DNA of 57,915 nt from the IMG/VR virus record IMGVR_UViG_3300042480_000777, positions 1 to 57,915 of that record, one strand, 5' to 3'. Origin of the DNA: a virus (Duplodnaviria; Caudoviricetes). The position numbers were made by a program, and so were the translations under genes. Positions 1,135 through 55,129 of the stretch are shown in pieces. Numbering within the stretch: position 1 is the stretch's first letter; each line of letters begins with the position of its first letter. Below the pieces are notes generated by a model. The model did not search any database and was not told where the DNA came from. It saw nothing but the letters and a program-made list of their open reading frames with translations.

Positions 1135-1548
1135 CTAGAGTCGAGGTGCGGCGTCTACGGACTCGATGAAGCCGCGGACGTCTCGCTTGATGGTGAACGT
1201 CCATGACTTCGGCGAGGCCGCGGGCGCCGAAACCCGCAGCTCGCGCAATCGTTCGGCGATGGCCTGAACCACCTTCTCGTTGCCGGACTCGATGGCCTGG
1301 GCCACCGGGTCCATGTCAAGGTGGATCTGGATCGTCTCTTGGGTCGCCACGACGGGCGACGGATCCGCGGGCGCGGGCTCGGCGGCCTGGGGCGTTGGCT
1401 GCTCGGGGGCCGGCTCGGGCGCAGGCTCGGGCTCGCGGCGCGAGACCTTGTCCATGGTCGTGTTGAACTTGCTGGCGCCGAGCTCGACCTGAGCACCGGC
1501 CGCCAGCGCCAATCGCTTGAGATCGGCCTGTGACTTGACTCGTCTCAT
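1135..1548 (-). CDS. Hypothetical protein with Pro/Glu linker
   Basis: ATG at 1548 overlaps the giant gene stop (ATGA); ends WTFTIKRDVRGFIESVDAAPRL. Confidence 0.7.
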   Translation of the reverse strand: MRRVKSQADLKRLALAAGAQVELGASKFNTTMDKVSRREPEPAPEPAPEQPTPQAAEPAPADPSPVVATQETIQIHLDMDPVAQAIESGNEKVVQAIAERLRELRVSAPAASPKSWTFTIKRDVRGFIESVDAAPRL

Positions 1549-4500
1549 TTCTTCAGGCACTCCAGCAGTTTGCCGATTGTAGCGATTCGCTGATTGTAGT
1601 CAGACAGCGCCTCGCCGGCGTCAACCGTGAGCCTGGCCTTTTCCCCGGTGTCCTCGACCTCGACTTCGTAGGTCACGCGCCGGCCGCGAGCTTGGGCTGG
1701 CGTGACCTCTTCGCGCTCCTGTGGTTGAGGCTCAGCGGCCTCCGGTGCGCGGTCGGCGGACTTCGTTACTTCTGAGGCGGCTGCTCCGGCGGCAGACTCC
1801 CCACCAGGAACCTCTGCTGCCGGTTCTGCTCGTTGAGCTCCATCCCCTGCAGTTGCTGCCGCAACAGCGTCACGAACGGAGCGTCCTTGCCAAGACGCTG
1901 CTCCATCGCGGCCAGATTGTTGCGCAGCATTTCGAGTTGAGTAGGCATTGATCGCGTCCTTGTATTCGTCGTTGAAGCGGGCGTCCACCTCGTAGTGGAA
2001 GAGTCCACCGAACGACACGCCAGGCAGCCTGTCGATCACCCGGTTGACGAGCTCCTGCAAGTCGCCGCGCGCCCCCTCCATCTTACCAACGATCTGTTGG
2101 TCCGTCAGCCCATTCCAGCTGCTATCGCCGTAGCGCGCATTGAACTCAGGCAGGTACATGATGCGCATGCCAACGGCCTTGGGCATGGCGCCGGAGAGCG
2201 CCTGCGGCGTGCGCCGGCCATCAACCACAACGGTGTAGCCGCCGATGCGGAAGTATCGATCGCTGCGGCCTTCGCCCTCGGGCTGCGCGCGCGGCACGGC
2301 GGTGCGCGCCACGCGGCGCATCATCTGCTCGACCTTGTCGGGGTCGGCTGAGTCGCGGAAGTAGATCTCCACACCCGGTCGGTGCAGGGTCAGGTCGACG
2401 TTTTCGTCGGGGCGCAGCACGCGAGCCACGAAGGCCGAGTCCTGGCGCTCGCGCTGCGCGACCTCAAAGGTCTTGGCCGCCAGCGGCAGCGGATTGAACC
2501 CGTCGCGGGCGATGAACTCGCCGTCGAAGGCGCGCTCCGGTGTGCCGTAGCGGCCCTCGGTGGAGTAGACCTTGGCGGCCACCAGTGAGCGGCCGTTGTC
2601 GCCCTTGTAGGCGGCGCCGTGGATTTCTTGCGCGACCTGCGCCTGCTTGGCGTCGGTCGGCACACTGGCCTGGCCCTGAATCTCAGAGGAGGACTGCACC
2701 GAAAGACCGAGGAAGAATCGATCCAAGGTACGAGACATGCGCGCGAGCTCGCGCAACGATGACTCCCGGGTGGCGCGCAGCTGCTCGGGCAGCGGGCGGT
2801 CGAAGGTCTTGGCCAGGCGTGCAGCCTCTTTCTTGAGGGCGCCGATCCGAGCGGTGACTTGCGCGGCACTGCGGCGCGACTTGGGCAGCCGCTCCAGGGT
2901 GACCGCGACTCGGGCCTTGAGTCCCTCAAGGCTGGTCTGCAACTTGGCCAGGGCCCGGTCGGACTTGGCCGATCCGTCGTTGCTCTTCTTGGCCTTGCGC
3001 ACTGCCGCGGTCATCTTGACCACGGCAGCCATGGCGGCGGCCGCATCCTGGTACGGCTCGAGCTCGTCTGCGATCTCGTAGATGCGGGCCTGAGCAACCT
3101 CCTTCTGCGCGCTGGTGGCGGAGATGGAGCTGTCGGCAATGCGCCTCAGTTCGCGCACCCGGGCCTGGTCCTTGACGCCGGCAAGGTCGGCCTCGAACTC
3201 GAACGAGCCGCCCTCTCCGGCGGCCGACGTCCAGTTGTTGCGCGTCCAGATCTCTTTCTCGACAAACCAGACCAGTGCTTGCAGGTCGTCGTCGTTGATC
3301 TTGCTGAGCACGTCGCTCTGGGCCATCTCAGCGTCGGCGCGCACCCACTGCACAGCCTGGGTGAACACGTCTTGCCCGAAGCCGAACTGCAGCGTGGCGT
3401 CACCCGAGGTCAGCATGCTGCCCGACACGCCGGTCTCGGCCATCGAGGCGATGCGCGGCCTGCCGGCGTTGCGCTGCAGGTTGCGCGCCGCCCACACGTC
3501 GATGGTGGCGCGGCCACGGAAGCCGATCAGATTGCCGCTGAAGTTCAGCGCCTTGGGCGCCGTGCCTCCGCGACCGATGTCCGGGTCGGCGTTCTTGACC
3601 ACGCGCCACAGGTCGATCATGGCGCGCACGACGTTCTGGCCGTTGAAACCGTACTTCTTGCCCGACTCCTTCGCCGGCAGCATGTCGTCGGGGAAGTTGC
3701 GCGCTTCCTTGGCGCGCTCGGCGAGCCACTGGTATTCGCCGAGCTCCTTGATCGCCTTCTTTGACATGCCGCGCTCGAGCATGGCATTGAAAAAGTCCTT
3801 GAACCGCGCCTCTATCTGGTCGACGTTGTCCGCCCAGGCGACCCATTTCGGCATGAGCTCATCGAAGTCGCCACGCAGTGCGCGGCGCAACGAGTCGATC
3901 GCGTTGTCCCAGTTGCCGCGCACCGGCGTGTTGGGGCTGGTGGCGCCCAGCAGGTCGGCGTACAGGTCACCCAGGCCGCCGAACTCGCGGCGCAGGCGCT
4001 CGCGCATGGCCTTGTACCAGGCCGCCTGGGCGATGATGTTGGAGGCTGCCTTGTCGCCAGCCTTGGCCCGCTCGTACACCTCACGAACGTCGGCCACCAA
4101 GCCACCAGCCACGCGCCTTACCGCCGCGTCGTACTCGGGCGTGCCAGGCTTGAGTGCGCGCCCATCAGGATCGGTGTTGAAGCTGTAGGGCACGTTCTCG
4201 TAGACGTACGCGACCTTCTGCTTGCCGCTGTCGTCAGTCTCGAGCTCGGCGCGCACGAACACCACCGGCGCCCAGCCGTTGCTCGGCGGGTGCGCCGCCT
4301 TGGCGTCGCGCACCGTGGCCTCAATCTCCTCGGCATCGAGGCCGGTATTGACCGCCGACTTCTCGATCGCCTTGCGCTCGGCGTCACTGAGCACCACGCG
4401 CGCGGCCACCACGCGCTCACCGCGCTCGGCCACCAGGTTGTGCAGGCTTACGTCGCCGACGCGGTCTTCGGTCTTGCGGATGTCGTCTTCGCTGACGCTG

Positions 4501-7500
4501 AAGACCCCGCCATTGAAGTCGGCGCTCTTGAGCTGGTTGGGCTCGAAGGCCACGAAGACGTCCGCCGGCTCGCCGCCGTACCCGGGGCCACCGCCGTCGT
4601 CCATGACGCTGCGAATGATGGCGCCGTCGTTACGCGACCGGCGCGCCCCGCGAACCACATCGTCGGTGGTCTCGTAGTTGTCGCCCGCGGGCTCGGCGGT
4701 GGCGCCGTCGTTTTCGCTGGCCAGGCGCTCGGCCTCTTCCTGCTCCAGGTACGCTCGCCCGTCATCGGTGTAGATGAGATCGCCATCGGCGTCGAGGACC
4801 TGGTACTGCCCATAGCGAGACCCGTCCCAGTTCGCGCCCTCGAAGTGCGACTCGCTGGGGTTGCGGATGTTGACGAACAGGGCGTAGATGCCAGGCTGGT
4901 CGCCGGCCTGCGGATCATCATCGGCGGGCTCCACCACGCGGCGCGCCCGGTTGCGGCGCACGTAGCTTGCCGCCATGCCTACGTCGTCGGTTGCGAAGAT
5001 GCCGAGGTCGCCGCGCTTCTCGCCGCCCGGCTCCTCAAAGGCCATGAAGCCGCCCTTGCCGCTGCCGTGGTAGACCACCAGCGGCTCGCCGTTCTCGTCG
5101 ACAGCCTTGGAGACCTCATCCAGCTGATCGCTCCAGACGCCACCCTCCTTGCCGGCGAACTTCTCCCAGTCGCCGAACCAGTTCTTGAACGACGGCGTGC
5201 GCACCTGCACCCACTGCCGCTCATTCAAGTTGCTGGGCGTGCCGTTCGGCGCCTTGAGCCACTGCTCAGTGCCCTTGAACTTGGCCTCAACTTCGGCGTA
5301 CTCGCGCTTGGCGCGATCGGCGGACTTGCGGATTTCCGGCCCCACCCCTCGGGCGATGCCGGCCAGGCCCTGCTTGTCCATGCCGACGGGACTCTTTGCG
5401 GCCGCCACGACGGCGGCCTTTGCATCGGCAAACCCCGGGTGCAGACCGTCGGGTAGGCTGTCTGGGCTAAACCACTGGGCGCTCGAGCTCTCCCAATTCA
5501 GCCGCGGGCCAAACTCGGACGGAACGGTGGCGATGAACGTGTTGTAGGTGGCGTTTCCAAACTTGACGGAGGCCACGGGCTCGAGCGCGATGTCGCCCGA
5601 GTAGCCGATCTCTTCCTTGGCTTCGCGGGTGGCAGCGTCAACGAGTGACTCGCCCTCATCAACGGCGCCACCAGGAATGCTCCAGGTGCCAGGGTTGGCG
5701 ACGCCAGGGCCACGCTTCGCAAGCAGAATGCGGCCAGTGTCGGCGGCGCGGAAAACGATGCCTGCAGCCTGCGGGCCCGCGGACTTGCGCTCGGAGCCCA
5801 TGATCTGGCGCACTCTTCGTACCAGCTCGTCCTTGTACATAGCCGCGTCGCCATTGAACGCGCCGATGTCCAGCAGCTGCGCAGCCTCCTCGGGCATCGT
5901 CGCCATCAGGATCTGCGCCCAGCGCGCGGGCGCGAGCGAGCCGGCCGGCAGGCTCTTGTTGGCGGCGATGCGATCGCCCAGGTCCATTTCGCGCGCCTTC
6001 GGGGCCGGAGCGGTGGCGGTCTCGTCGCCATCAATGCGTGAGCGCGGGCCGAGCACCTCGGGGGTGATGGTCTGCTTGCCGAGCAGGATGACCTGGCCGG
6101 GCTGCGTGCCCTCCAGGCGTGTGAGGTAGCCGCTGTAGCCGTTGTCGAGCACCTTCGACTCGAAGACCCGGGCGTTGCCGCCCTTGAGCTTGAGGGGGTC
6201 CGCGTCGGCGTCGTAGATGTTGGTGAGCGTGGCCTTGTGGGCAATGCCGCCCACACCAGACTCCGGCCGCACGCCGGTGCCCTTGTCGAAGTAGAAGGAC
6301 AACCTCTCGCGAATCCGTCCGTCTGCGGAGGACATGATCTCGTCGCGCGCGCTGCCCCTCAGGCCGGTGCCGAAGAACGAAGTCGACAGCGTCTTGCGCG
6401 GCTGCTGGCTGAAGTGGTAGCCGGTGACAGTGAGGCCCTCGGGGCGATCCTCGCTCTTGCGGATGTCGGGGTTCTCGGGGTCGTAGGTTCCCTGGTTGCC
6501 GATGGCGGACTTGATCTGCTCGGGGTCGAAGGTGATGAACTCGCGTGCGCCGGGATTCGACGAGCTTTCAACGATGAGCCCGTCGTGGCCCATTTCGCGC
6601 AATGCGTCTTGAAGTTGGCGGCCAACGTACCCCGTGTCTTCGCGGCGCATCCCGGCAATCAAACGCTGCGCTTTTTCGCGGGGAAGGATGTCGCGAATCA
6701 GGTCGAAGTTCGCTTCGTCGCCTGGGTCGCGCTCGTAGTAAGCGGGCTCGCGGTAGATGTACGGGCGCTCCATGCGCAGGTACACCGGCATGACGTTCTC
6801 GCCCTCGTCCGAGTTCAAGGCGTACTCATCGGCGAGCGTCGCGTCGTCCGTGAAGTACATGCCCTTGCCGTACCAGCCGCGGCGAGACGCGCGAAAGACT
6901 GTGATGTCCGCGCCCGTCCCGTGGTACACCACCAGCGGCCGGCCCCGACCGTCAACCACCTTGCTGTCACCGAACCACTTCTTGAACTCGGGCGTCTCGG
7001 TCTGGGCGCGGTCCTCCGACTTGCGGATGCCGGCGATCTTGGCCATCTCTCGGAAGCGCTGCACCACCTTCTTGTGGTGGTTGCCGATCGACATCTGGTC
7101 GACCTTCATCTTCGGCGTGCCGGTGATGTTCTTCGTCGTTTCGCGCCCGTCAACGAACTCGGTGGCCGACGTGATCAGCGCGCCGCCAGAGGTGCGCGTC
7201 TGCAGCAAGACGGGGATACCCTCGTCGCGCAGATCGGTTGTGGCGGACCAGTCGTTGAGGCCGTTCTTCTTGAGCTGCGTGTGGGCGCGCTTGACGCGGT
7301 CCTCGCTCTTCTTGAGCTGCTGCTCGGCGCGCAGCTGCTCCGCAGCCATCGCACGTTGCGACACGCCGGAGCTCTTGAGGTAGTCGGCCATGGCGTCGCG
7401 GAACGCGGCGCGCACTTGCTCGAGCTCCTTGACGAAGCTGTCGGCCTTGTAGCCTGGCCGCTGGGCTGCATCGAGAATGCGCGCGACCATGCGCTTGAAC

Positions 7501-10500
7501 AGCGCAGAGAGCTTGGCGATGATGCCCTTTGCGTTTGCGCCGTTCTCCTCCTGGATCTTCAGAAGCACCTCGCCCCAGAACGTCGGGTCCTTGAGCAGGT
7601 TGCCGCCCAGGTCGGACACGAGCTCCTCGAGCTCGCCGCCGCTTTGCTCGGACAGCGCCTCGCTGCCTTGCTCCCCGATCTTCAGGTCGGTGCGGCCGCT
7701 CTTGGCGACGAACTCCTTGGCATTCTTGGCCGCGCTCTTGCCACCAAAGGTCTTGACCGTCTTGCCGTCGGCATCGCGCACCACGACGCTGCCGTAGTAG
7801 TCCTTACGGAAGCTCTTGGGGTCAATGACGCGCTCGCGCACAACGGCGGCAATCGCGTTCCAGGCCTCGGGGTTGGTTTCGCGCAGGGTGTGGAAGAACT
7901 CGTGGCCGAACACCGCCAACGGGTTGATCGTGGTCTCGCTCGCCACGAAGAGCGTGTTGGGCTGGCCGGGGATCGCGAAGCCGTCAGCCAGGCGCTTTCC
8001 GTCGGCCTTGTAGAAGACGACCTGCTTGCCAAGCATGTCGGCGATGGTCTGAATCAGCTCTCCGTCCTCTTGTGACAGCGGGCTGGGTCCGCTGCCTCGC
8101 GGGGCGCTGGTCTGCTTCGGTAGCTCGCTGGCTCGAACCAGGCGCAGCTTGCGCTGCTCGCCGCCGTCGCTGACGTAGAAAAACTTGGGCTGGCCGTCGG
8201 CATCAGCCTGCTCGGCGGGCGCGAGGTTGGGCTGCGTGATGGCGGCCTCAACCGCAGCACCCGGCGCGGCTGCAGCTGTTGCCTCAGGGGCAACAGTTGT
8301 TGCGCTTTGCGCAACACCCGATCCAGCCGCCGGCTTCTTCGCCGCACGCGACTTGGCCCAGGTCTTGAACTGGCCAACGCTCATCTCGGTGATGGCGCCC
8401 AGGCCGGTCCAGCCCGGCTCGTAGTTGGCCAGGTAACCCTGGCGCGCCGCCTCTTCCGAGGTGAAGCCCATCATGACCTTGTGCTCGTCGAACGAGCCGT
8501 CCTCACTCACCTGGTCGATGACGAAGATCTTGTTGGTGTCAGGACGAGGGCCAATGAAAACATCCACAGGGTCGCCGTCGGCACCTTCCGTGCGCTTGAT
8601 TTCGCCATAGTGGTGAACCATTTTGGTTTCCCATGGCTTGGCTGCGCCTGGCTTGCTGCGACGAATGGAGCCCTCCGGATTCTCAATGGTGATGACGACA
8701 CCGTTGAGGTCAATCTTGTCGCCCTTCTTCCAGTTGTTGGCCTCAATGTTCCGAGCGGTGGGCTCGCTGCGATCGTTGAGCGGGCTGGTCGCGGCGGTGT
8801 TGGCCAGGGCGTCGACGCGATCCTTGATCGCCTTGCGCGCAAGCTGCGCATCAGCCGGGCCGTCGAGCCGGAACTTCTGGCCGGTCTTGGTGTTGGTGAG
8901 GAAGAACGTGTTGCCGTCGCGCGCCACGGTCTCGAAGCCGTTGTCGACCAGCTGACGCACGACGTTCGAGCGCTTGCGCAGGAAGGCGGGCTGATCGGTG
9001 TCGCCGCCCAGAGGGCCGGTGGCCTTGGCTGGCGCGGGAGCCGTGGTCAGGAAGTCCAACTCGTTGGGTTGCGACGCAACATTCGGTTGCGACGTGGGCG
9101 CAGCAGAGCCGGGGGTCGCGGGCGCGGCCTGCTCCAGGGCGGACGCGCCTTGCGCGCTCGGCGCGCCGGTCGGGGCCTGGTAGCGGCCGACGATCTCGAG
9201 CGCCTGCTGGGCGGCGTTGACGCGGACGGTGTTCTCGCCCTGGCTGTTGTTGGCCAGGTTGTAGAGGTAGAGCAGCTGCTGGCGATCCGGGTCCGAGATC
9301 TTGCCGCGCAAGCTCGGGTCGCGCAGGGCGCTGGCCACGGCGTTGAGCGATGGCACTTCGCGCGGCGCGGCCTCAGCCGACTCGACGGGCGCGAAGTCGG
9401 GGTTGTTCTGGATCGAGTCCATCGGCGCCGGCGGCGGCGCATCGCGATTGGCGAAGAAGGTGGCGGTCTCGACGCGCTCCAGCGCAGCCTCGCGCGCGGC
9501 GCGCGGGGCGTTGACGTTGCGGGCGAGCGCCATGTCGGCGAGCACCTCGCGCGAATCCAGGCCGTCCAGGCGCAGGTTGTCGAGCCAGCCCTCGGTGCGC
9601 ATGCCCTCCTCGAGGTTGCGCACGCGCTGCACCAGATCGTCGGCGGCCGGTGGGCGAGTGTCGGTTGGCGGAACTGCGCCGGCGGGCGGCACGGCGGGGC
9701 TGGCTGTGGCCGCGGCCGCAGACAGTGCGCCCGCATTGCCGGCCATGGCGGCGCGCGACAGCGGGCTGTTGGGCTCGGCAGCCTTGGCGGCCACAGGCTT
9801 GAGCTCGGGTGGCAGGCTCGGGCTGCTGGCGAAGCCGCCGACCGCGCCGACGGGGCCGCCCACAAGGGCGCCGCCCAGGAAGTCGCCGGCCGTGTTGCGC
9901 AGGGCGTTGTCGCCGGCGGCGCGGCCCAGGGCGATGTTCTCGCCGACGTTCTGGCCGACCTTCTCGGTGGTCTCCTGGCCGCCCTCGGCAATGCTGCCCA
10001 CGCCGCCGCCAATCGCGGCGCGCCCGGTGCGCGATGCCACCGAGTCGCCCAGCACGCGGGCCATGCCCTTCTTGGCAACGAAGTCCTCGAGCACGCGGGC
10101 ATTGAGGTAGCCGCCGGCCGCACCGAAGGCGGCAGCGCCAAGGCTGGCGTACTGCGCCGCCTGGTTGACCACGGCCTGGCGCGCAGACTGCTCGTCGCCG
10201 GTGGCGTTGAATGCTTCGGCGTAGGTCGGCACTTCGGCCAGGAGCTGCTCGTGGCTCATCTTGGCCAGCGTGGCCGCAGCCGACTGGCGCACGTCCTCTG
10301 CCGCGGCGCCGCCGGTCATGGCGCCGCCGGTGCCCACGCCGATGGCGCGCGAGGTGCGCGAGGCGGCCTCGGCGGCCTTGAACAGCTCCGCCGCCTTGGC
10401 GGCATCGCCGGCGGTCTCCGCGGCGCGCGCAGCCTTGGTGAGTGAGGCCACCCGGGCAGCCGGCCCCGCAATCGGAATCAGGGTCGTGGCGAGGGAGCCG

Positions 10501-11378
10501 AAGCTGCTGGCGGCCATCATCAGCCACCCATCGACACTGCCTGGAAGTCCAGCATCGCCAGACAGCAGGTCGACCACACTGCCCTCGACCCTGGCGTCGG
10601 CTCGCGCCTGCTTGCCGCCTTCGGTCATGGAGCCGCGCACGGACTCGGCGACCGGCGTGAGCGGATTGAAGCCCTCGTAGTCGTTGGTGCCGGTGACCTT
10701 GTTGGCCAACGCCGCCGCGCCTTCGCCGGCAAACTGAACCATGGAACCCACACCCGCAATGGCCGAGGCGGCGAACTCCTTGCCGAAGTCGGTGAGGGTG
10801 GCCTTCTCGCGCTCTTTGGCGGCGTCGACGTACTCCTGGCCAGTGGGTGAGACGAACTCACCCTTCTTCGCCGCCGGCGCACCCGCGCCGACCTTGCGCA
10901 GGATCGAGGGCACGTACTGCTGCGTCTCGCGCGGCATGTACTGCAGCCAGGCCTCAGGCGTGCCGTTCTTCTCGGCGGTGGCCAGAGCGGTGCGCAGGCG
11001 TTGCGGGCCCGCGTTGTAAGCGGCCAGGGCGCGGGCGGTGTCGCCGTCGAAGTCCTGCAGCTGACGGTTGTAGTAGGCGCGACCCAGGGCCTTGTTGTAC
11101 TCCGGGTCGGTGCGGTAGCGCATCTCGTCGTACTCGAGGCCGGCGAGCTTGGCCGCCTCGGGCGCGGTGGCCGGCATGACCTGCGCAATACCAATGGCCC
11201 CCGCCTTGCTGGTCAGCGGCGCACCGCTCTTGTCGAACTGCTTGCCGCCAGACTCCTGGCCGAGCAGCGCGTCAAAGACTCGGTCCTGGCTCGGGCCGGC
11301 AGGCTGGCCACTGGCCCCGCCAGCAGGGCCGAAGGAGTCCAGGGCCTTGCCGAGTGCGATGTCGAAGATGTCTGCCAT
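1545..11378 (-). CDS. Giant polyvalent internal virion/ejection protein (lytic transglycosylase, InPase-like, zincin metallopeptidase, ART-like domains, Nudix, glycosylase-like)
   Basis: 3277-aa ORF. SLT motifs QESGG/GIAQVMP/AYNAGP/ETQQYV; IENPEGS..HYGEI..GADGDPVDVF..FDEHKVM; HEFFH; two FKxWFGD..PLVVYHG domains; Nudix box GAVDEGESLVDAATREAKEEIG; TIDVW..LQALVW. Confidence 0.92.
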   Translation of the reverse strand: MADIFDIALGKALDSFGPAGGASGQPAGPSQDRVFDALLGQESGGKQFDKSGAPLTSKAGAIGIAQVMPATAPEAAKLAGLEYDEMRYRTDPEYNKALGRAYYNRQLQDFDGDTARALAAYNAGPQRLRTALATAEKNGTPEAWLQYMPRETQQYVPSILRKVGAGAPAAKKGEFVSPTGQEYVDAAKEREKATLTDFGKEFAASAIAGVGSMVQFAGEGAAALANKVTGTNDYEGFNPLTPVAESVRGSMTEGGKQARADARVEGSVVDLLSGDAGLPGSVDGWLMMAASSFGSLATTLIPIAGPAARVASLTKAARAAETAGDAAKAAELFKAAEAASRTSRAIGVGTGGAMTGGAAAEDVRQSAAATLAKMSHEQLLAEVPTYAEAFNATGDEQSARQAVVNQAAQYASLGAAAFGAAGGYLNARVLEDFVAKKGMARVLGDSVASRTGRAAIGGGVGSIAEGGQETTEKVGQNVGENIALGRAAGDNALRNTAGDFLGGALVGGPVGAVGGFASSPSLPPELKPVAAKAAEPNSPLSRAAMAGNAGALSAAAATASPAVPPAGAVPPTDTRPPAADDLVQRVRNLEEGMRTEGWLDNLRLDGLDSREVLADMALARNVNAPRAAREAALERVETATFFANRDAPPPAPMDSIQNNPDFAPVESAEAAPREVPSLNAVASALRDPSLRGKISDPDRQQLLYLYNLANNSQGENTVRVNAAQQALEIVGRYQAPTGAPSAQGASALEQAAPATPGSAAPTSQPNVASQPNELDFLTTAPAPAKATGPLGGDTDQPAFLRKRSNVVRQLVDNGFETVARDGNTFFLTNTKTGQKFRLDGPADAQLARKAIKDRVDALANTAATSPLNDRSEPTARNIEANNWKKGDKIDLNGVVITIENPEGSIRRSKPGAAKPWETKMVHHYGEIKRTEGADGDPVDVFIGPRPDTNKIFVIDQVSEDGSFDEHKVMMGFTSEEAARQGYLANYEPGWTGLGAITEMSVGQFKTWAKSRAAKKPAAGSGVAQSATTVAPEATAAAAPGAAVEAAITQPNLAPAEQADADGQPKFFYVSDGGEQRKLRLVRASELPKQTSAPRGSGPSPLSQEDGELIQTIADMLGKQVVFYKADGKRLADGFAIPGQPNTLFVASETTINPLAVFGHEFFHTLRETNPEAWNAIAAVVRERVIDPKSFRKDYYGSVVVRDADGKTVKTFGGKSAAKNAKEFVAKSGRTDLKIGEQGSEALSEQSGGELEELVSDLGGNLLKDPTFWGEVLLKIQEENGANAKGIIAKLSALFKRMVARILDAAQRPGYKADSFVKELEQVRAAFRDAMADYLKSSGVSQRAMAAEQLRAEQQLKKSEDRVKRAHTQLKKNGLNDWSATTDLRDEGIPVLLQTRTSGGALITSATEFVDGRETTKNITGTPKMKVDQMSIGNHHKKVVQRFREMAKIAGIRKSEDRAQTETPEFKKWFGDSKVVDGRGRPLVVYHGTGADITVFRASRRGWYGKGMYFTDDATLADEYALNSDEGENVMPVYLRMERPYIYREPAYYERDPGDEANFDLIRDILPREKAQRLIAGMRREDTGYVGRQLQDALREMGHDGLIVESSSNPGAREFITFDPEQIKSAIGNQGTYDPENPDIRKSEDRPEGLTVTGYHFSQQPRKTLSTSFFGTGLRGSARDEIMSSADGRIRERLSFYFDKGTGVRPESGVGGIAHKATLTNIYDADADPLKLKGGNARVFESKVLDNGYSGYLTRLEGTQPGQVILLGKQTITPEVLGPRSRIDGDETATAPAPKAREMDLGDRIAANKSLPAGSLAPARWAQILMATMPEEAAQLLDIGAFNGDAAMYKDELVRRVRQIMGSERKSAGPQAAGIVFRAADTGRILLAKRGPGVANPGTWSIPGGAVDEGESLVDAATREAKEEIGYSGDIALEPVASVKFGNATYNTFIATVPSEFGPRLNWESSSAQWFSPDSLPDGLHPGFADAKAAVVAAAKSPVGMDKQGLAGIARGVGPEIRKSADRAKREYAEVEAKFKGTEQWLKAPNGTPSNLNERQWVQVRTPSFKNWFGDWEKFAGKEGGVWSDQLDEVSKAVDENGEPLVVYHGSGKGGFMAFEEPGGEKRGDLGIFATDDVGMAASYVRRNRARRVVEPADDDPQAGDQPGIYALFVNIRNPSESHFEGANWDGSRYGQYQVLDADGDLIYTDDGRAYLEQEEAERLASENDGATAEPAGDNYETTDDVVRGARRSRNDGAIIRSVMDDGGGPGYGGEPADVFVAFEPNQLKSADFNGGVFSVSEDDIRKTEDRVGDVSLHNLVAERGERVVAARVVLSDAERKAIEKSAVNTGLDAEEIEATVRDAKAAHPPSNGWAPVVFVRAELETDDSGKQKVAYVYENVPYSFNTDPDGRALKPGTPEYDAAVRRVAGGLVADVREVYERAKAGDKAASNIIAQAAWYKAMRERLRREFGGLGDLYADLLGATSPNTPVRGNWDNAIDSLRRALRGDFDELMPKWVAWADNVDQIEARFKDFFNAMLERGMSKKAIKELGEYQWLAERAKEARNFPDDMLPAKESGKKYGFNGQNVVRAMIDLWRVVKNADPDIGRGGTAPKALNFSGNLIGFRGRATIDVWAARNLQRNAGRPRIASMAETGVSGSMLTSGDATLQFGFGQDVFTQAVQWVRADAEMAQSDVLSKINDDDLQALVWFVEKEIWTRNNWTSAAGEGGSFEFEADLAGVKDQARVRELRRIADSSISATSAQKEVAQARIYEIADELEPYQDAAAAMAAVVKMTAAVRKAKKSNDGSAKSDRALAKLQTSLEGLKARVAVTLERLPKSRRSAAQVTARIGALKKEAARLAKTFDRPLPEQLRATRESSLRELARMSRTLDRFFLGLSVQSSSEIQGQASVPTDAKQAQVAQEIHGAAYKGDNGRSLVAAKVYSTEGRYGTPERAFDGEFIARDGFNPLPLAAKTFEVAQRERQDSAFVARVLRPDENVDLTLHRPGVEIYFRDSADPDKVEQMMRRVARTAVPRAQPEGEGRSDRYFRIGGYTVVVDGRRTPQALSGAMPKAVGMRIMYLPEFNARYGDSSWNGLTDQQIVGKMEGARGDLQELVNRVIDRLPGVSFGGLFHYEVDARFNDEYKDAINAYSTRNAAQQSGRDGAASWQGRSVRDAVAAATAGDGAQRAEPAAEVPGGESAAGAAASEVTKSADRAPEAAEPQPQEREEVTPAQARGRRVTYEVEVEDTGEKARLTVDAGEALSDYNQRIATIGKLLECLKK
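1766..1948 (-). CDS. Overprinted 60-aa helical protein nested out of frame in the giant gene
   Basis: AAGGA 8 nt before ATG; MPTQLEMLRNNLAAMEQRLGKDAPFVTLLRQQLQGMELNEQNRQQRFLVGSLPPEQPPQK; G/C-ending codons fall in this frame rather than the host-gene frame over this interval. Confidence 0.65.
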   Translation of the reverse strand: MPTQLEMLRNNLAAMEQRLGKDAPFVTLLRQQLQGMELNEQNRQQRFLVGSLPPEQPPQK

Positions 11379-14556: not shown

Positions 14557-15162
14557 TCAGTCCCTGAAGATCTTCACGAATTCCAGCGCCACGGGCTCGT
14601 AGCCCAGGCGCCGCATCAGAACGTCAGCCCGGTTGACGAGCTTGCTGTTGACCCGGATCTCGCGAATGCCGAGGGCCAGGAGCGACTGCTCAGCAAAGCG
14701 CATCAAGGCCATGACGCGGAATCCGCCGCGATGCGCGGGCCTGATGAAAAGGGTGTCCTCGCAGGCGTAGCGGGTCTGGGTGTGGATGCTCAGCGCGATG
14801 AGCATGCGCAGGTTGCCGATCAGCTCTCCGCTCGCGCTGCGGATGGTGAACTGAATGAGGTTGCCGGCGCGCTCGCGCGCGATCACGGCGTCGTAGTCGG
14901 GGTTCAGGGCGAGGCCGTGACGGTGCTTCTCGGTCTCCAGCCAGTGCTCGACGTGCAGCTCGTGCATCTCGGGCAGGATGTCGGCAAAGCGCTCAACCTG
15001 GATGGTGTAGCCATCGCCCACCAGCTGGCCGAACTTGCTTGGCTCGTGCGTGCAGTCGGGCTCGGCGAAGAAGGCGGCCTCGATCTCGGCAGCGTCCTCA
15101 GGCAGCAGCACGCGACCCAGCTTGGCGGCGAGCGTCTGTCTGAACACCTCAAGCTGCGGCAT
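14557..15162 (-). CDS. GNAT acetyltransferase-fold protein
   Basis: EDTLFIRPAHRGGFRVMALMRFAEQ..LGI..LMRRLGY resembles GNAT motifs A/B; purine-rich RBS before ATG 15162; usual position ahead of podovirus ejection genes. Confidence 0.75.
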   Translation of the reverse strand: MPQLEVFRQTLAAKLGRVLLPEDAAEIEAAFFAEPDCTHEPSKFGQLVGDGYTIQVERFADILPEMHELHVEHWLETEKHRHGLALNPDYDAVIARERAGNLIQFTIRSASGELIGNLRMLIALSIHTQTRYACEDTLFIRPAHRGGFRVMALMRFAEQSLLALGIREIRVNSKLVNRADVLMRRLGYEPVALEFVKIFRD

Positions 15163-15187
15163 GGCCACCCCCTTTCTGGCGGGCCCG

Positions 15188-15215
15188 ATTTTACCAGCCA
15201 CGCAACAGAATGTTG
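15188..15215 (-). promoter_or_regulatory. Candidate promoter for the ejection-protein operon with palindromic site
   Basis: Extended -10 TGGTAAAAT on the minus strand; CAACAGAATGTTG at 15203-15215. Confidence 0.55.
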
Positions 15216-20340: not shown

Positions 20341-21288
20341 TCAGAGCACGCGCTGACCACGGAAGTAGGCGTGGCCGGCAATGACCTCGCACAGCTCCGG
20401 CGGCAGCAGGCGGCCGCTCTCGAACGTCAGCACAGCGAAGCCGCTGCACCACGGCGTCGGGTTGCCCTCGAGGTAGGTGTACTGGTCGCCGCCCGGGTCG
20501 GACAGCGTGCCGGTGTCGACCCCGTAGCGGCGGCCGCGGTAGTCGCCCCAGGGTGTGATGCACAGGCGGTGCAGGTGCCCGGTGACGATCGAGGTCCCGG
20601 ACTTGAGCGTGTTGTTGTAGGCGGCATGGATGCCGTTGTGGTAGCGGTGCTTGACCATCACGTCGCTGTTGACCATCAGCGACCAGCCGTGCTCCCAGCC
20701 GCGGAAGTAGTCCCACAGCGTCAAGCCCGGCATGTTGGAGAGCTCGGGCGCGTTGACCGCGATGTAGCGGTGCAGCCGCGAGTCGTGGTTGCCAATGGTC
20801 CAGAAGCGCTCCGCGCCCTTGCTGGCCTTCTCGACCTCCGCCATGCGCTCGCGCACAGCGTCGAGCTCATTCTGCGCGGACGGCAGGCTCATGGAGCCGG
20901 TGTACATCGGCTCGTGACGGCTGATGCGCGCGCCGTCGTAGATGTCGCCGTTGGCGATCACCGTCTTGGGCTTGAGCGACTTGCACAGCTCGAGCAGGGC
21001 AAGGTGGGCCGTGGTCGGCTCGCCGGGCCAGTAGTGGGCGTCACTGAACACGATGGCCACTCCGTTGGCCAGCGAGGTCTCCAGGCGGTGACGGTTAGCG
21101 GGCACTACCGTGCTGGTAGCGCGCGGGTCGCGCCAGGCCACCAAGTTCACGCCGTAGCGGTTCTCGATGTATCGGCGTCGGGCGTGCACGTTGCGCACAT
21201 GGACACCGAGCTCAATGGCAACCGCCTGTGGACTGCCGTGCTTCTTGAAGCACTCCATGAACTCGACGTCGGTGGTGGCTGGCTTCAT
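20341..21288 (-). CDS. Calcineurin-like metallophosphoesterase with N-terminal HTH-like segment
   Basis: SDAH, NGDIYD, GNHD, H, GHLH motifs in the canonical order. Confidence 0.88.
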   Translation of the reverse strand: MKPATTDVEFMECFKKHGSPQAVAIELGVHVRNVHARRRYIENRYGVNLVAWRDPRATSTVVPANRHRLETSLANGVAIVFSDAHYWPGEPTTAHLALLELCKSLKPKTVIANGDIYDGARISRHEPMYTGSMSLPSAQNELDAVRERMAEVEKASKGAERFWTIGNHDSRLHRYIAVNAPELSNMPGLTLWDYFRGWEHGWSLMVNSDVMVKHRYHNGIHAAYNNTLKSGTSIVTGHLHRLCITPWGDYRGRRYGVDTGTLSDPGGDQYTYLEGNPTPWCSGFAVLTFESGRLLPPELCEVIAGHAYFRGQRVL

Positions 21289-21997: not shown

Positions 21998-22057
21998 GTG
22001 CTCCTGTGTTGCTGGTGGCGTCCTTGTCGCCGTAGGGTGATTGTTGACCGATGACGG

Positions 22058-22261
22058 CTACTTCGCCGCAAGCGGCTGGGTCGTGATGGCCCGCAGCACC
22101 ACGATGGCAGCAGCAATCGCGCTGCCAACCGCCGCCTGGCCCCAGGGGGGAATAGGGAGGTGCAGGACGAAGCCCTGAAGGACGGACAGCACCGCCAGGA
22201 TGATCGCAAACCAGACGGTGCGCGAGCGCAGGGCGGCGGCGATGAGTTGGGTGGTGGTCAT
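22058..22261 (-). CDS. Holin-like two-TM protein
   Basis: MTTTQLIAAALRSRTVWFAIILAVL...VVLRAITTQPLAAK. Confidence 0.7.
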   Translation of the reverse strand: MTTTQLIAAALRSRTVWFAIILAVLSVLQGFVLHLPIPPWGQAAVGSAIAAAIVVLRAITTQPLAAK

Positions 22262-22269
22262 GCTTGAAT

Positions 22270-22722
22270 CTATGCAGTGGGCTCTTGAGGCCACGAGACG
22301 TTGAACGGAAAACCGGGCTGCGACGTAACGTCTCGAAGCGCCTGCCGGTATGCGGCCCACGCCGCCTTGTTCACTGGGGCATCGGCGACCTGGGTCCAGT
22401 CGCAGGCAGTAAGCATTTCATTTCGCGTCTGGCGAACATCCGACGACATAGAATCCAAGCGAGTCGAGACCTCTTGCGCGCTCAGAGGCTCAATCAACCA
22501 AGAGCAGACCCATCCCGAGCCCACCTTCACGGGCTGCGCTTGAGAGAGCTTCTGCGTTAGTGAGTTGTAAAAAGGCGGAGCGGAGGAAGAGACGTAAACG
22601 TACCCATCCGGTAGCGCGGCGTCATTTGACAAATCCTCCGGCAAGCTCGCGCCTGATAGGCGCTGACGAAGATTCACAATCGGGTACTCGACCACTTGGC
22701 CGTTTTTAATTCTGGCGTGCAT
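22270..22722 (-). CDS. Tail fibre assembly chaperone
   Basis: VRQTRNEMLTACDWTQVADAP..WAAYRQALRDVTSQPGFPFNVSWP; GAGG RBS. Confidence 0.88.
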   Translation of the reverse strand: MHARIKNGQVVEYPIVNLRQRLSGASLPEDLSNDAALPDGYVYVSSSAPPFYNSLTQKLSQAQPVKVGSGWVCSWLIEPLSAQEVSTRLDSMSSDVRQTRNEMLTACDWTQVADAPVNKAAWAAYRQALRDVTSQPGFPFNVSWPQEPTA

Positions 22723-22730
22723 TTTTAACC

Positions 22731-24707
22731 TCAGTTTACTGCAAGAGCACCACGAAAACCAATTGCCAACACTTCGGAGCCGGCGCCTCTTGCGAGAATG
22801 GACACGGGGATCGTTACACCCCACGAAGACAAATTGCGAAGACTGTTGTTAAGCGTCCATGTAACGCCGTCTGGGCTGGTTGCAATATGGGCGCCATTGC
22901 CGCCGATCACGAACTCTGAACCCGTCCATACGACTGCACTAACGCTGCTCGCAGAAGTCCATCCCGCAAAGACTAGACTGGACGACCTGTCTGTCCATGT
23001 AACGCCGTCTGGGCTGGTGGCTACGCGATTGCTGCTGCCTACAGCACAGAATTGGGAGCCATTCCAGGCAATAGCGTTTACTTGCGCTGTCGTGCCCCAC
23101 GACGTGGATCGCAGGCCGCCCTGGTATGTCCAGGTGATGCCATCTGAGCTAGTGGCAATTCTGCCAGCGGCGCCTCCAACGCAATACTGCGACCCGCTCC
23201 ACGCAATAGACGTCACAGCGGAGGACGTTCCCCACGTTGTTGAACGAAGCGAGGCGCGAACAGTCCAGTTGACGCCGTCCGGGCTGGTGGCGACATATCC
23301 AAAGTTTGCGCCGACAAGGAACTGTGAGCCGTTCCACAAAATTGCGTTTGTGGTGCCTATTCCGCCAGACGACAAAGAAGATGACAAAGACCAATTTATT
23401 CCGTCTGCACTTGTGGCGCTAAGGCCAGAGTTGGATATCGCACAAAATACAGAGGCGCCATAAACCACTCCCCTGGCGGAAAAAAGACCAGACGCCAACA
23501 ATCCAGAGCGATAGGTCCAGTTGATTCCGTCTGGACTCGTTGCCGCTCTAGCAAATCCACCAGCGCCCGAGCCGCCGACTGCACAAAATTGAGACCCACT
23601 CCAAGCTACTCGGGGGATCGAGGTGCCTGTTCCGAAGACAGATTGCGCTTTAGAAAGTCCGTCCCGGTACGTCCATGTTGAGCCATCTGGACTTGTGGCA
23701 ACCGCACCGTTGCTGCCCGCTATGCAAAACTGACCCCCGGCGTAGACAATGCAAAGCGCCGATCCAGCAGAGCCAAATGCTGAGTCCCACCCCGACGGGG
23801 TAGTTACAAATGTCCATGTAACGCCATCTGGGCTGGTAGCAGCGCAACCATTGGAGCCCGTGACGCAAAACAACGACCCACCCCAGGTGATTGCGTTGCA
23901 TGCCCGTCCAGCCCAAGATGTCGAGCCTAAACCAGACTGAAATGTCCAAGTTATTCCATCTGAGCTGGTGGCAACGCTTGCGGCTATACCATTGCTACCA
24001 ACGACGCACAAAACCGAGCCGCTCCAGGCAAGACTAGAACAATTCAGCGTCCCCCAAGCCGTGGAGCTTAGGCCCGACCTGTATGTCCATGTAATACCGT
24101 CTGGGCTTGTGGCAACAGCACCAGAAAGACCTACCACGCAAAACTGAGAGCCCGTCCAGACAATGCCTGCGGCAGATGTCGTCCCCCAAGCTGTAGAGCT
24201 AAGGCCCGACCTGTATGTCCACGCAAGCCCATCAGGGCTAGTGGCGACGCCTCCACTGGAGCCAACAACACAAAATACAGAGCCATTCCATGCGATAGAT
24301 GTGCCGATTTTTGCGCCCCACGAAGTCGCGGATAGGTTGAAGTTTGGCGACCAATTTTGTCCGTTTAAGCTGGTTGCACAAGCCCCTGATTGACCAACTG
24401 CACAAAAACGCGTTCCATTCCAGGCAATGCCATAAATAGGCTCCTCTTGCGCGGAAAAGACGTAGTTCACGGAGCTGGATAGGCCTGCCTGAAATGTCCA
24501 CGTCACCCCGTCTGAGCTTGTGGCGCATCTGCCCGACTCTCCAACAATGCAGTATTTTCCATCCCCATAAGCGACGGCGTTGGCTTGGTAAAAGCCAAAC
24601 TCAGATAGGCGCTTAGAAAGCCCATCCCGGTAGGTCCAAGGAGACGTCGAAGGCGGCGGAGGTAGCGCAGACGGCGTAACCGCCATCAAAATACTTCTGG
24701 CGCTCAC
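22731..24707 (-). CDS. Asp-box/BNR-type beta-propeller repeat protein, probable receptor-binding protein
   Basis: About 13 repeats of W-G/N-GS-FCVVG..ATSPDG-TWT; GTGA overlap with the upstream fibre gene; more A/T-ending codons than its neighbours. Confidence 0.8.
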   Translation of the reverse strand: MSARSILMAVTPSALPPPPSTSPWTYRDGLSKRLSEFGFYQANAVAYGDGKYCIVGESGRCATSSDGVTWTFQAGLSSSVNYVFSAQEEPIYGIAWNGTRFCAVGQSGACATSLNGQNWSPNFNLSATSWGAKIGTSIAWNGSVFCVVGSSGGVATSPDGLAWTYRSGLSSTAWGTTSAAGIVWTGSQFCVVGLSGAVATSPDGITWTYRSGLSSTAWGTLNCSSLAWSGSVLCVVGSNGIAASVATSSDGITWTFQSGLGSTSWAGRACNAITWGGSLFCVTGSNGCAATSPDGVTWTFVTTPSGWDSAFGSAGSALCIVYAGGQFCIAGSNGAVATSPDGSTWTYRDGLSKAQSVFGTGTSIPRVAWSGSQFCAVGGSGAGGFARAATSPDGINWTYRSGLLASGLFSARGVVYGASVFCAISNSGLSATSADGINWSLSSSLSSGGIGTTNAILWNGSQFLVGANFGYVATSPDGVNWTVRASLRSTTWGTSSAVTSIAWSGSQYCVGGAAGRIATSSDGITWTYQGGLRSTSWGTTAQVNAIAWNGSQFCAVGSSNRVATSPDGVTWTDRSSSLVFAGWTSASSVSAVVWTGSEFVIGGNGAHIATSPDGVTWTLNNSLRNLSSWGVTIPVSILARGAGSEVLAIGFRGALAVN

Positions 24708-30003: not shown

Positions 30004-30429
30004 TTAGGCCACAGTGACGGTGATCGAGCCGATGCCGAAGCTCAGGACGTCACCCACCAGCAGGGTCTTGCTGGAGGTCAGGGCGGCGTGGTACAGCAGG
30101 TTGCCGCCGGTGGCTGCGTCGTACAGGCCGATGTGCGTCACCGTGACAGAGCCGGCCCCGTTGTTGGCGGCGAAGGTGATGTTCTTGGCGTTGCTCGACA
30201 CACCATCGGCTGAGGCTGTCCACCCGGTGGAGATGGCTGCGCCGTCAGCCGCGTCGCGGCGAGCGTAGGCCGGCCAGGCTGCGGTCTGCACCTCGTTGGC
30301 GGTCACGTTGGCGTCCGTCGGGTCGGCCGTGAACAGGCCGACATACACGCCGGCGGGCACGGGGAAGGCGGCGCCGCGCAGCGTCGTCTGGACGATGTTG
30401 TTCTCGGTGTAGTTGGAAAACTTGCTCAT
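30004..30429 (-). CDS. Conserved small tail/fibre-associated protein
   Basis: MSKFSNYTEN..YVGLFTADP..VTHIGLYDAATGGNLLYHAALT. Confidence 0.8.
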   Translation of the reverse strand: MSKFSNYTENNIVQTTLRGAAFPVPAGVYVGLFTADPTDANVTANEVQTAAWPAYARRDAADGAAISTGWTASADGVSSNAKNITFAANNGAGSVTVTHIGLYDAATGGNLLYHAALTSSKTLLVGDVLSFGIGSITVTVA

Positions 30430-34988: not shown

Positions 34989-35234
34989 TCAAACTATCGG
35001 CAGGGGCTGCTGCCCGCGCAGCGTTGCGCGAATGGCCAGCGTCTGCTTCAGGTGCGCCTGCACGCGCTGCAGCTCATCGACAGAGACGTCGGCCAGCTGC
35101 GCGCGGTAGACGTCGGCCAGGCTCGAGAGCATCTTGTCGATGTGCACAAGCGGGTCGGCGCCGCGGAACTCGGCCACGGCAGTGGAGGCGCTCTGCAGCT
35201 CGCGAATGGCGACCATGCCTGCGTCTTCCATCAC
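34989..35234 (-). CDS. Small helical protein after the portal gene
   Basis: 81 aa, start overlaps the portal stop. Confidence 0.7.
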   Translation of the reverse strand: MMEDAGMVAIRELQSASTAVAEFRGADPLVHIDKMLSSLADVYRAQLADVSVDELQRVQAHLKQTLAIRATLRGQQPLPIV

Positions 35235-52747: not shown

Positions 52748-53483
52748 TGATCCCCTTGCGGTAGTCGGTTCCGGCAAAGCCGGAGTGAGCACTGGCGGCG
52801 CGACGCAAGCCCTGCTTGCTGTTGCGAACCCAGTTGCGCCAGGTAGCCAGCCAGTCGAGCTTGCAGCCGTCCTTGCCCGGCTTGGCTACCCAGTAGTCCT
52901 TGAACCTGGCCGCCACGTCATCGACGTCCAGGTCTGGCCGCTCAGCCCGGGCCCAGGCCGCCCAGTCAACAGGCAACACCCACTCCTTGTCGAGTCGTGA
53001 GGCTCGGGGGGTAACAGGTACGTCAGTACCTGTCGAAGATGAAGATGAAGTAGAAGATGAAGGGGTTGGCTTGAGGTTCGGCGGAAGGTTAACCTTCTCA
53101 TCACCCTTCCCCTCATCCTTCTTCTTGCCCTTCAGGGCCGGGTTCCCGCCAAGAGATCCGCCTGCAGCCCTTGACTGGCGAATGCTTTCGTCGCGGATCA
53201 TCCGCCGCGACATGATGCAACCCTCCTCGTCGCGCGAGAAAACGCCGAACGACTCGAGCTCGTCGAGCCAACCCTCCACATCGGGCAAGGTGGCCCCAAG
53301 CATGCGAGCTAGGTTTGCTGGAAGGATTGGCCTATGGTTAACCTTCAGGTAGCCGTAGTCCGAACCTTGGTGCATCAGGCACAGCATGTCGATCCAGAAT
53401 CCGCGAGCCCCAACGGAGCACGCCCTGAGGGCGGCGTCATTCAGCCAGTCGCCAGGGTAAAACTGAAATGATGGGCGCTTCAT
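52725..53483 (-). CDS. Phage replication initiator protein
   Basis: MKRPSFQFYPGDW N-domain, Ser-rich linker, FKDYW..KLDWLATWRNW C-domain; upstream of the DnaC-like gene. Confidence 0.88.
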   Translation of the reverse strand: MKRPSFQFYPGDWLNDAALRACSVGARGFWIDMLCLMHQGSDYGYLKVNHRPILPANLARMLGATLPDVEGWLDELESFGVFSRDEEGCIMSRRMIRDESIRQSRAAGGSLGGNPALKGKKKDEGKGDEKVNLPPNLKPTPSSSTSSSSSTGTDVPVTPRASRLDKEWVLPVDWAAWARAERPDLDVDDVAARFKDYWVAKPGKDGCKLDWLATWRNWVRNSKQGLRRAASAHSGFAGTDYRKGINDDGSFE

Positions 53484-53557
53484 GCTGAGGCCTCCTTTTT
53501 GGATGCCCTCAACCCGCGAAGCGCGGCGGACCTTCTATTGCTCATGCCTTACCTTCC

Positions 53558-53637
53558 GCGCTTGGGGTGTGGAGCTGGAAGACTCCCCAACAGGTGGGAG
53601 CGCTGTCCTTACGGTTTCAGCTCTCCACCCCAAGCGC
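53558..53637 (-). ncRNA. Multi-branch stem-loop in the leader of the replication operon
   Basis: Arms GCGCTTGGGGTGTGGAGCTGGAA and TTTCAGCTCTCCACCCCAAGCGC enclose two small hairpins. Confidence 0.55.
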
Positions 53638-53712
53638 CCTGTCACTTGCGTTATCCGCCGAGCTTCCAACTCGACGGGGCTTTGGATGCCGACAGTTGCT
53701 GCCGGCGGTCGG

Positions 53713-53752
53713 ATCATAACAACCGCATGGTTGTCGTGACAACATTCTGTTG
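53713..53752 (-). promoter_or_regulatory. Replication-operon promoter with palindromic site
   Basis: TTGTCA-18nt-TATGAT with TGn extension; CAACATTCTGTTG at 53740-53752. Confidence 0.7.
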
Positions 53753-53755
53753 CCT

Positions 53756-54061: not shown

Positions 54062-54175
54062 GTGAGCTCCGTCAGTGTGGTGTTGCTTCCGAGTGTAAGG
54101 CTCTCTTGCCAACGGAATGTTAGGTGCGTATTCTGAATTTGTTGGGCCACTGCCCGAGCGCCGTAGGAGCGCCAA

Positions 54176-55054: not shown

Positions 55055-55064
55055 CTCATGGCTA

Positions 55065-55104: not shown

Positions 55105-55129
55105 CGCCGAACTTTGACAGGAGGTTCGA

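Follow-up and report, generated by a model that had tools for sequence, protein, structure and literature searches.

The virus record IMGVR_UViG_3300042480_000777 raises the question of how a single phage chain that strings several enzymes together could be put to work. The whole record, a linear stretch of 57,915 bases that CheckV rates as about 70% complete, was analyzed and is called the window here. Its giant open reading frame (ORF), at 1545..11378 (-), encodes a protein of 3277 amino acids (aa) that a first-pass annotation had divided into effector cassettes at seven copies of a short peptide. That annotation took the peptide to be the cleavage site of a metallopeptidase domain in the same chain, and perhaps also a junction for the swapping of cassettes. 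We find that the motif stands at the joints between cassettes and is conserved as a peptide, that cassettes are exchanged at these joints, and that a conserved, catalytic-looking HExxH...E domain lies directly ahead of the first of them. From the sequence, we favor the reading that this domain cuts the chain at the motif, which we regard as quite possible but short of probable.

A recurrent peptide at the joints of a giant phage protein

The layout of the protein is best explained as three parts: a conserved N-terminal trunk, a string of exchangeable enzyme cassettes and a conserved C-terminal tail. The trunk, which matches phrog_10089, 'DarB-like antirestriction' (E 5.1e-50), runs from a cell-wall hydrolase through a long Gly/Ala-rich region and an InPase domain to the HExxH...E zincin-like domain. 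The features are given here in protein order, with their positions in the window. ART stands for ADP-ribosyltransferase.

10965..11279 (-), aa 34-138: SLT lytic transglycosylase domain (Pfam PF01464, E 4.8e-16)
8352..8750 (-), aa 877-1009: InPase domain (Pfam PF18823, E 1.4e-48)
7317..8123 (-), aa 1086-1354: HExxH...E zincin-like domain, with HEFFH at 7890-7904
7296..7316 (-), aa 1355-1361: motif 1, LKKSEDR, directly behind the zincin-like domain
7029..7295 (-), aa 1362-1450: 89-aa cassette of no known family (96 aa from motif to motif); segment cluster 12, 4 proteins
7008..7028 (-), aa 1451-1457: motif 2, IRKSEDR
6465..7007 (-), aa 1458-1638: ART-PolyVal cassette 1 (Pfam PF18760 at aa 1476-1631, E 1.2e-46)
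6444..6464 (-), aa 1639-1645: motif 3, IRKSEDR, whose first half is the C-terminal tail of ART-PolyVal
5793..6443 (-), aa 1646-1862: 217-aa unit with conserved H, Y and E, homologous to segment cluster 2 (43 proteins)
5772..5792 (-), aa 1863-1869: degenerate joint, ERKSAGP
5334..5771 (-), aa 1870-2015: NUDIX cassette (Pfam PF00293 at aa 1870-1981, E 2.1e-16)
5313..5333 (-), aa 2016-2022: motif 5, IRKSADR
4482..5312 (-), aa 2023-2299: ART-PolyVal cassette 2, with a large insert (Pfam PF18760, E 6.6e-17)
4461..4481 (-), aa 2300-2306: motif 6, IRKTEDR
1770..4460 (-), aa 2307-3203: 897-aa cassette of no known family; segment cluster 9, 6 proteins
1749..1769 (-), aa 3204-3210: motif 7, VTKSADR
1548..1748 (-), aa 3211-3277: conserved C-terminal tail ending ...YNQRIATIGKLLECLKK

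Because SLT, InPase, two ART-PolyVal domains and NUDIX share one 3277-aa ORF of a virus record, we assign the product, by its domain content, to the polyvalent proteins in the sense of Iyer et al. (2017), of the virion type.

The seven copies first annotated were placed correctly to within a few bases, and six of them hold K[ST][EA]DR, starting at aa 1357, 1453, 1641, 2018, 2302 and 3206. The seventh, ERKSAGP, shares only RKS with the others and falls below the threshold of the position-specific scoring matrix (PSSM) described below. In 2000 residue shuffles of the protein, K[ST][EA]DR appeared 0.0145 times on average and at most twice, compared to six times in the real sequence; the stricter [RKT]K[ST][EA]DR averaged 0.0035, with a maximum of one. 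No PSSM match occurs in the remaining 58 ORFs predicted in the window (12,758 aa in all). One additional stretch of the giant protein, GSIRRSKPGA at aa 905 (window ~8640-8666), scores 12.2 against a threshold of 11.9; it lies within the InPase domain and is probably a chance match.

Mapping the domains against the motifs bore out the view that the copies mark domain boundaries, as all six lie outside the Pfam envelopes. The first ART-PolyVal domain (1476-1631) is flanked by the motifs at 1451-1457 and 1639-1645, and NUDIX (1870-1981) by the degenerate joint at 1863-1869 and the motif at 2016-2022. The second ART-PolyVal domain, residues 72-271 of the piece 2023-2300, sits between the motifs at 2016-2022 and 2300-2306. 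These identifications are secure against the curated cut-offs: ART-PolyVal (PF18760) scores 159.4 bits for the whole protein against 31.2, with 63 bits for the second copy, and NUDIX (PF00293) scores 60.6 bits against 21.1. The Nudix label and those of ART-like units 1 and 2 are thus upheld by Pfam matches. Two other labels were not confirmed, as neither the 'second ART-like unit' (aa 1646-1862) nor the 'glycosylase-like' unit (aa 2307-3203) has a family match in Pfam, PHROG or PDB; the same is true of the 89-aa unit and the tail. Aligned with stand-alone ART-PolyVal in hhalign, the 217-aa unit gave a probability of 2.1% and an E value of 0.022, with H, Y and G-x-D-G-like landmarks in the same order. 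A search for stand-alone versions of this unit returned a single, probably fragmentary protein on a contig of 1176 bases.

At the DNA level, the motif copies have 11-18 of 21 bases in common, and 0-2 codons for the same residue differ per pair. Their serine is encoded by AGC, TCG or TCC, and by AGC/AGT and TCG/TCC/TCA when four related loci are included. Since both families of serine codons are used, selection acts on the peptide, in agreement with what had been read from the synonymous differences between copies. A DNA repeat was also considered as the nature of the motif and was rejected on these base and codon counts.

Conservation of the motif across a family of giant proteins

We searched for relatives with aa 1100-2400 as the query, and 611 of the 2640 candidates scored reached E<=0.001. 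The best 120 of the 611, giants of 1889-5553 aa that are mostly metagenomic, form together with the query a first set of 121 proteins; they were chosen by likeness to aa 1100-2400 and are mutually related, so counts across them are not independent events. The pattern [IVL][RKT][KRF]S..R occurs 262 times in this set, compared to 6.4 +/- 2.4 times in shuffles, and at least once in 90 of the 121 proteins. A PSSM trained on the pattern matches finds 376 sites in 104 of the 121, with the threshold set so that a shuffled set yields about 6. The motif has the consensus [G/P/S]-D-[I/V/L]-[R/K/T]-[K/R/F]-S-x-[D/E]-R. This training makes the residue logo partly circular, and alignments built blind to the motif serve as the non-circular check.

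In the motif-blind alignments, the Ile, Ser and Arg columns of motifs 3, 5 and 6 are identical to the query in 65-77% of cases, compared to 41-48% in the flanks; this range excludes the Ser column in motif 6, a position at which the query carries Thr. At motif 1 the same columns reach 54-61% against flanks of 33%. Neither motif 2, which has few true orthologues, nor ERKSAGP is conserved above its flanks. The expectation that homologues keep the motif at their joints is therefore borne out for motifs 1, 3, 5 and 6 but not for motif 2 or the degenerate joint. Across the matches, the five residues on each side have a hydrophobic fraction of 0.09-0.12, compared to 0.267 overall, and by this measure the motif is set in short hydrophilic linkers. 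No relatives were found in bacterial genomes with the peptide patterns.

The motif is found behind many kinds of cassette. As many as 227 of the 376 PSSM matches lie behind non-ART cassettes from at least 15 clusters, mostly after stretches rich in G/S/A/D/E. We considered whether the motif is merely the tail of the ART-PolyVal domain and rejected this idea, as those 227 matches have no such tail before them.

ART-PolyVal nevertheless reveals that the motif has two halves. Stand-alone proteins of this family end in a tail of the form ...QIKSAIGNxGTFDPxNPDI[T/R]x, which is present in 99 of the 120 short proteins listed. Twenty of those with the tail stop exactly two residues past its Ile, just before the position of the invariant Ser, and 33 of them stop within 22-27 residues of the tail start. 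Among those listed that continue past the tail, only 2 of 65 have S..R. Distant giants carry 6-11 such tails in arrays of ART-like domains, and in arrays of 7 and 10 ART-PolyVal stretches each stretch ends in the tail. The occurrence of many ART copies per protein is noted for polyvalent proteins in the main text, as far as it was covered, of PMC5512222. By these patterns, the first half of the motif is part of the domain, at least for ART, and the S-x-x-R half belongs to the joints.

The C-terminal tail is a second recurrent element of the family. Its last ~20 aa (...YNQRIATIGKLLECLKK; window 1548-1640, aa ~3247-3277) are kept at the end of many homologues regardless of which cassette precedes them. 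The strict pattern is present in 46 of the 121 proteins, and many more finish in CLNK or CLQK. A second class of tail among the homologues reads ...FLDILExLExSGxxxINC[D/E/K/P]. The conserved tail could be a packaging or anchoring signal.

Exchange of cassettes at the joints

Cutting the proteins of the first set at their PSSM matches yields 492 pieces in 134 clusters, and the large clusters are tight in length (198-276 aa in 43 proteins, for example). These clusters are combined in varying orders, such as 1-2-0-7-3, 1-2-0-4-3, 1-0-8-3 and 1-2-0-9-10. Breakpoints between the proteins are concentrated at the motif: 18.4% of internal BLAST alignment ends (n=68,498) fall within 5 aa of a motif Ser, compared to 1.4% of random positions. 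The view that the motif marks the boundaries of exchangeable cassettes is supported by these pieces of constant length in many orders and by the position of their breakpoints.

The nearest relative, L001, shows recent changes of this kind. Identity to our protein is 94-100% across the trunk, the HExxH domain, the units of 96, 217 and 897 aa, Nudix and ART2. The ART1 cassettes share only 39% identity, between neighbors that are 98-100% identical (core at window ~6522-6962, aa ~1473-1619), which looks like a recent allele replacement. L001 also has an additional cassette of ~300 aa inserted at the last motif. This insertion matches the prediction that domains are gained or lost exactly at the motif, but the ART1 crossovers do not, because they fall ~15-20 aa away from the motifs, within the conserved ends of the ART domain, and not in the motif itself. 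The InPase domain (window 8352-8750) is 70% identical to that of L001, with flanks at 94-97% and no motif at its edges. By this comparison it is a second mosaic patch of the gene, and module replacement also happens without the motif.

A conserved HExxH...E domain ahead of the joints

The sequence HEFFH (7890-7904) and the downstream ELEELVSD are present as the first-pass annotation stated, and the domain that holds them is conserved and immediately precedes the first motif. All 233 homologous domains retain H, E, H and the distal Glu, and 229 of the 233 retain the Asp. Judged by these conserved ligands, the domain looks like a zincin of the gluzincin-like kind and is predicted to be catalytic. 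Sequence and profile searches with aa 1086-1354 gave no usable match in Pfam, PHROG or PDB. MPTase-PolyVal (PF18818) and MuF_C (PF18819) had no match at E<=10 in the window or in 11 family members. The weak matches that were seen are to Peptidase_M48, in 3 of the 11 members (best E 0.019), and to MMP-2 at E 2.1. An Atlas search with a homologue of the domain returned only unnamed viral clusters.

A profile of the 11 members collects 3664 representative clusters at E<=0.001, of which 238 reach E<=1e-30. In a tblastn search of aa 600-1360 against a phage collection, 462 records matched, and the 30 listed all match the InPase part only; among the matches listed, no cultured phage appears to carry the HExxH domain. 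Some of the homologues P0054, P0251, P0294, P0334, P0353 and P0359 start at this domain, as if the gene had been split after the trunk. Other homologues in this group stop soon behind it, and several may be contig-end fragments.

Domain and motif tend to occur together and mostly in one polarity. Of the 121 proteins in the first set, 98 have both, 13 have neither, 6 have the motif only and 4 have the domain only. No motif is found N-terminal of the domain in 88 of 99 domain-bearing proteins, and in many proteins the first motif begins 1-7 aa behind it. We also took a further set of 124 representatives, chosen by the HExxH domain alone. There the motif occurs 0.751 times per 1000 aa behind the domain compared to 0.217 times ahead of it, and 74 of the 124 have a downstream motif.

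Possible cleavage at the joints and its alternatives

We favor a processing site because a selected linker peptide between enzymes and invariant residues of a catalytic type are found in the same chain. In this reading, the zincin-like domain would cut the packaged or injected chain at the motifs, freeing the trunk, the 96-aa unit, ART 1, the 217-aa unit together with Nudix, ART 2, the 897-aa unit and the tail. Stand-alone ART-PolyVal proteins stop exactly between [K/R/F] and Ser, which would make this the likeliest scissile bond; a cut just before Ile is the alternative. We infer that the domain is an active peptidase and acts on the motif, as well as where and when it would cut. The excess of the motif, its place in linkers, selection on the peptide, the S-x-x-R specific to joints, the linkage to the domain and the invariant residues all speak for this reading. 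So do the earlier proposal of autoprocessing by zincin-like domains (PMC5512222) and the finding of no other protease among the capsid-tail ORFs scanned (20 with PHROGs and 10 with Pfam); the module is of the GP4/phi24B type, and the capsid protein of phi24B is described as unprocessed in a preprint (10.64898/2026.04.10.717836). The broader claim, that a mostly uncultured phage family packages a true polyprotein that is cut at D-I-R-[K/F]-S-x-[D/E]-R by a built-in, unmodelled HExxH...E peptidase, strikes us as possible, with a shade more doubt attached.

Several observations weigh against cleavage by the domain. Fifty of the 124 further domain-bearing proteins lack a downstream motif, and in 36 of the 50 the part behind the domain is longer than 300 aa; no variant of the ART tail was detected in these 36 with a looser regular expression. 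Conversely, P0106 has eight motifs and P0081 three, and neither matches the HExxH domain profile. HExxH is absent from P0081 altogether, and the only such string in P0106 has surroundings unlike those of a zincin. By these counts the domain and the motif are not strictly coupled, and their coupling is loose. The label 'peptidase' is founded on the conserved residues, since no curated peptidase family matches. The first half of the motif is integral to ART-PolyVal even when nothing follows it, and therefore at least that half has another role. The ERKSAGP joint before Nudix is also degenerate in P0005 and P0007, both relatives that share the joint. In addition, the clustering of breakpoints and the polarity relative to the domain would also be expected if the trunk were simply non-exchangeable. 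Among characterized proteins, the HExxH-bearing virion RNA polymerase (vRNAP) of phage N4 is said to be packaged unprocessed in the covered part of PMC5512222, and the covered part of PMC13434306 mentions HExxH and not proteolysis.

The chief rival is that the motif is an uncleaved connector or docking peptide in a protein that works as one chain. It would cap or space cassettes, or bind a common partner (for example the capsid interior, DNA, the ejection channel or a chaperone), and the HExxH domain would act elsewhere, for instance on the cell wall or on host proteins. This explanation stands ahead of the other rivals because of the ART-tail finding, the loose coupling of domain and motif, and the unprocessed N4 enzyme. 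The ...PDI[R/T]x half is kept at the extreme C-terminus of stand-alone ART-PolyVal, where there is nothing to cut off, and it closes every stretch in the arrays of 7 and 10. The 36 proteins with a long downstream part and no motif would fit a connector as well, as would the proposal, in the part of the phi24B preprint (10.64898/2026.04.10.717836) that was covered, that the gp47 metallopeptidase attacks peptidoglycan. We still judge a connector unlikely, if a serious contender. S-x-x-R is nearly absent from stand-alone ARTs (2/65) and nearly invariant at joints, which ties its role to having a following cassette. The motif also stands behind at least 15 unrelated cassette types and therefore belongs to no single fold, and a plain spacer would not retain Ile, Ser and Arg amid drifting neighbors.

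The remaining explanations fare worse. Cleavage by a protease other than the HExxH domain in cis, either a host enzyme after injection or a phage enzyme encoded elsewhere, would account for P0106 and P0081; with the record at ~70% completeness, the gene of such a protease could be missing from it. We consider it improbable, given that the HExxH domain is present in 98 of the 104 first-set proteins that have the motif, and that no protease family was matched among the capsid-tail ORFs scanned (20 with PHROGs and 10 with Pfam, a part of the 58). There is a similarly slim chance that the motif is purely a recombination joint, a short shared sequence with no role in the protein. The concentration of alignment ends at the motif, the many orders of cassettes, and the recent ART1 swap and cassette insertion at motif-bearing joints are what such a joint would produce. 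However, the copies share just 11-18 of 21 bases and use both Ser codon families, the actual ART1 crossovers lie 15-20 aa away in the conserved ART ends, and InPase was replaced without a motif. The N-terminal hydrolases belong to three Pfam families among the proteins listed, yet 88 of 99 proteins have no motif upstream of HExxH, and conservation at the peptide level persists between proteins that are just 30-50% identical. Very improbable, in our view, is a role as the acceptor site for the protein's own ADP-ribosyltransferases, which would modify Arg or Ser. The conserved residues are Arg, Ser and Arg, and ART-PolyVal occurs in nearly all first-set proteins listed, which is weak evidence because the query for that set itself included ART. 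Among the 124 proteins chosen by the HExxH domain alone, the motif is still present in 30 of the 63 that have no detectable ART.

The gene neighborhood

The giant ORF is the end of a podovirus capsid-tail module that comprises the small and large terminase, an SU10-type portal, a major head protein, a GP4 gp80-type fibre domain, tail fibre proteins and an internal virion protein. The fibre domain (E 1.1e-40) and the portal, at 30004-30429 and 35231-37573, place the phage among the GP4 / phi24B / 933W-like short-tailed phages. Its nearest capsid proteins come from Pseudoalteromonas phage vB_Pun_Y3 (47%) and Pseudomonas phage Rollin (45%).

Two other ORFs lie within the block of tail and virion genes, one acetyltransferase-like (14557-15201, phrog_1249) and one metallophosphoesterase-like (20341-21288, phrog_221). 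At 22001-24000, G+C falls to 0.575, compared to 0.63-0.71 elsewhere, and the list of ORFs filtered by G+C at third codon positions (GC3) is empty at 22361-24703; this region may be foreign DNA or a gene of different composition. A second stretch in which no ORF passes the GC3 filter spans 52793-55678.

Relation to known systems

Polyvalent proteins combine many effector domains in one giant polypeptide of the virion module, and the protein described here does the same with ART-PolyVal twice, InPase, NUDIX and a cell-wall hydrolase. Zincin-like domains have been proposed to autoprocess such proteins (Iyer et al. 2017, PMC5512222, main text in part). The HExxH domain of our protein belongs to neither the MPTase-PolyVal nor the MuF_C Pfam family. 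A word search in part of the main text of PMC5512222 found no mention of a recurrent joint motif. Searches of a literature library for polyvalent protein, cleavage and ejection protein turned up no report of a joint motif or of the processing of such a protein, and searches with the motif peptide strings gave nothing relevant. The class of polyvalent proteins and the proposal that zincin-like domains process them are already in print; what appears to be new, from our sequence comparisons, is a defined joint motif and an unmodelled HExxH family within that class.

DarB-like giants of Bcep22-like phages and gp47 of phi24B are likewise encoded where a podovirus capsid-tail module of the 933W/GP4 type ends, and the trunk of our protein shares the DarB-like PHROG match. 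Two such proteins were detected in virions by mass spectrometry: JC1 gp69 (4515 aa), according to the covered sections of PMC9144972, and phi24B gp47 (2811 aa), according to those of the preprint 10.64898/2026.04.10.717836. The same sections contain no report that the giant protein is processed. With the cultured phages, among the matches listed, only the InPase part is held in common and not the HExxH domain. Packaging and delivery of our protein with the DNA are suggested indirectly, by its position at the end of the module and by the detection of these positional analogues in virions.

MARTX toxins offer a parallel from another kind of delivered protein. In these giants, an inositol-phosphate-activated cysteine protease cuts after Leu in linkers and frees exchangeable effectors. 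If cleavage is real in the phage protein, a built-in protease would likewise free the exchangeable cassettes of a giant delivered chain. The phage protein differs in its putative metal-dependent HExxH protease, its predicted basic-Ser-acidic-Arg site, its phage carrier and its lack of RTX repeats, and the two are not homologous. Packaged or ejected proteins of T4 and phiKZ-like phages are cut by a separate prohead serine protease at short consensus sites that end in Glu. Cutting of packaged or ejected proteins at short consensus sites would be a shared feature, whereas the site itself is different here and the ORFs scanned yielded no protease of that kind.

Polyvalent proteins are regarded as the main route by which many phages bring enzymes in with their DNA, and the joint motif provides a handle on how a chain of ~3000 residues becomes working enzymes. 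It marks the limits of cassettes from sequence alone, and the bounds of dozens of unknown cassette families can therefore be set for expression. It also shows precisely which residues a mutational test of processing should target, and it draws attention to a large HExxH family (3664 representative clusters) that is absent from domain libraries. If there is no cleavage, the motif is still a strongly selected peptide in hundreds of phage proteins that needs an explanation. If cleavage is real, the motif and peptidase would form a natural self-releasing fusion system, and these proteins would be the counterpart, in phages, of MARTX toxins and RNA-virus polyproteins, their anti-host enzymes arranged by a plug-and-play grammar that can be read.

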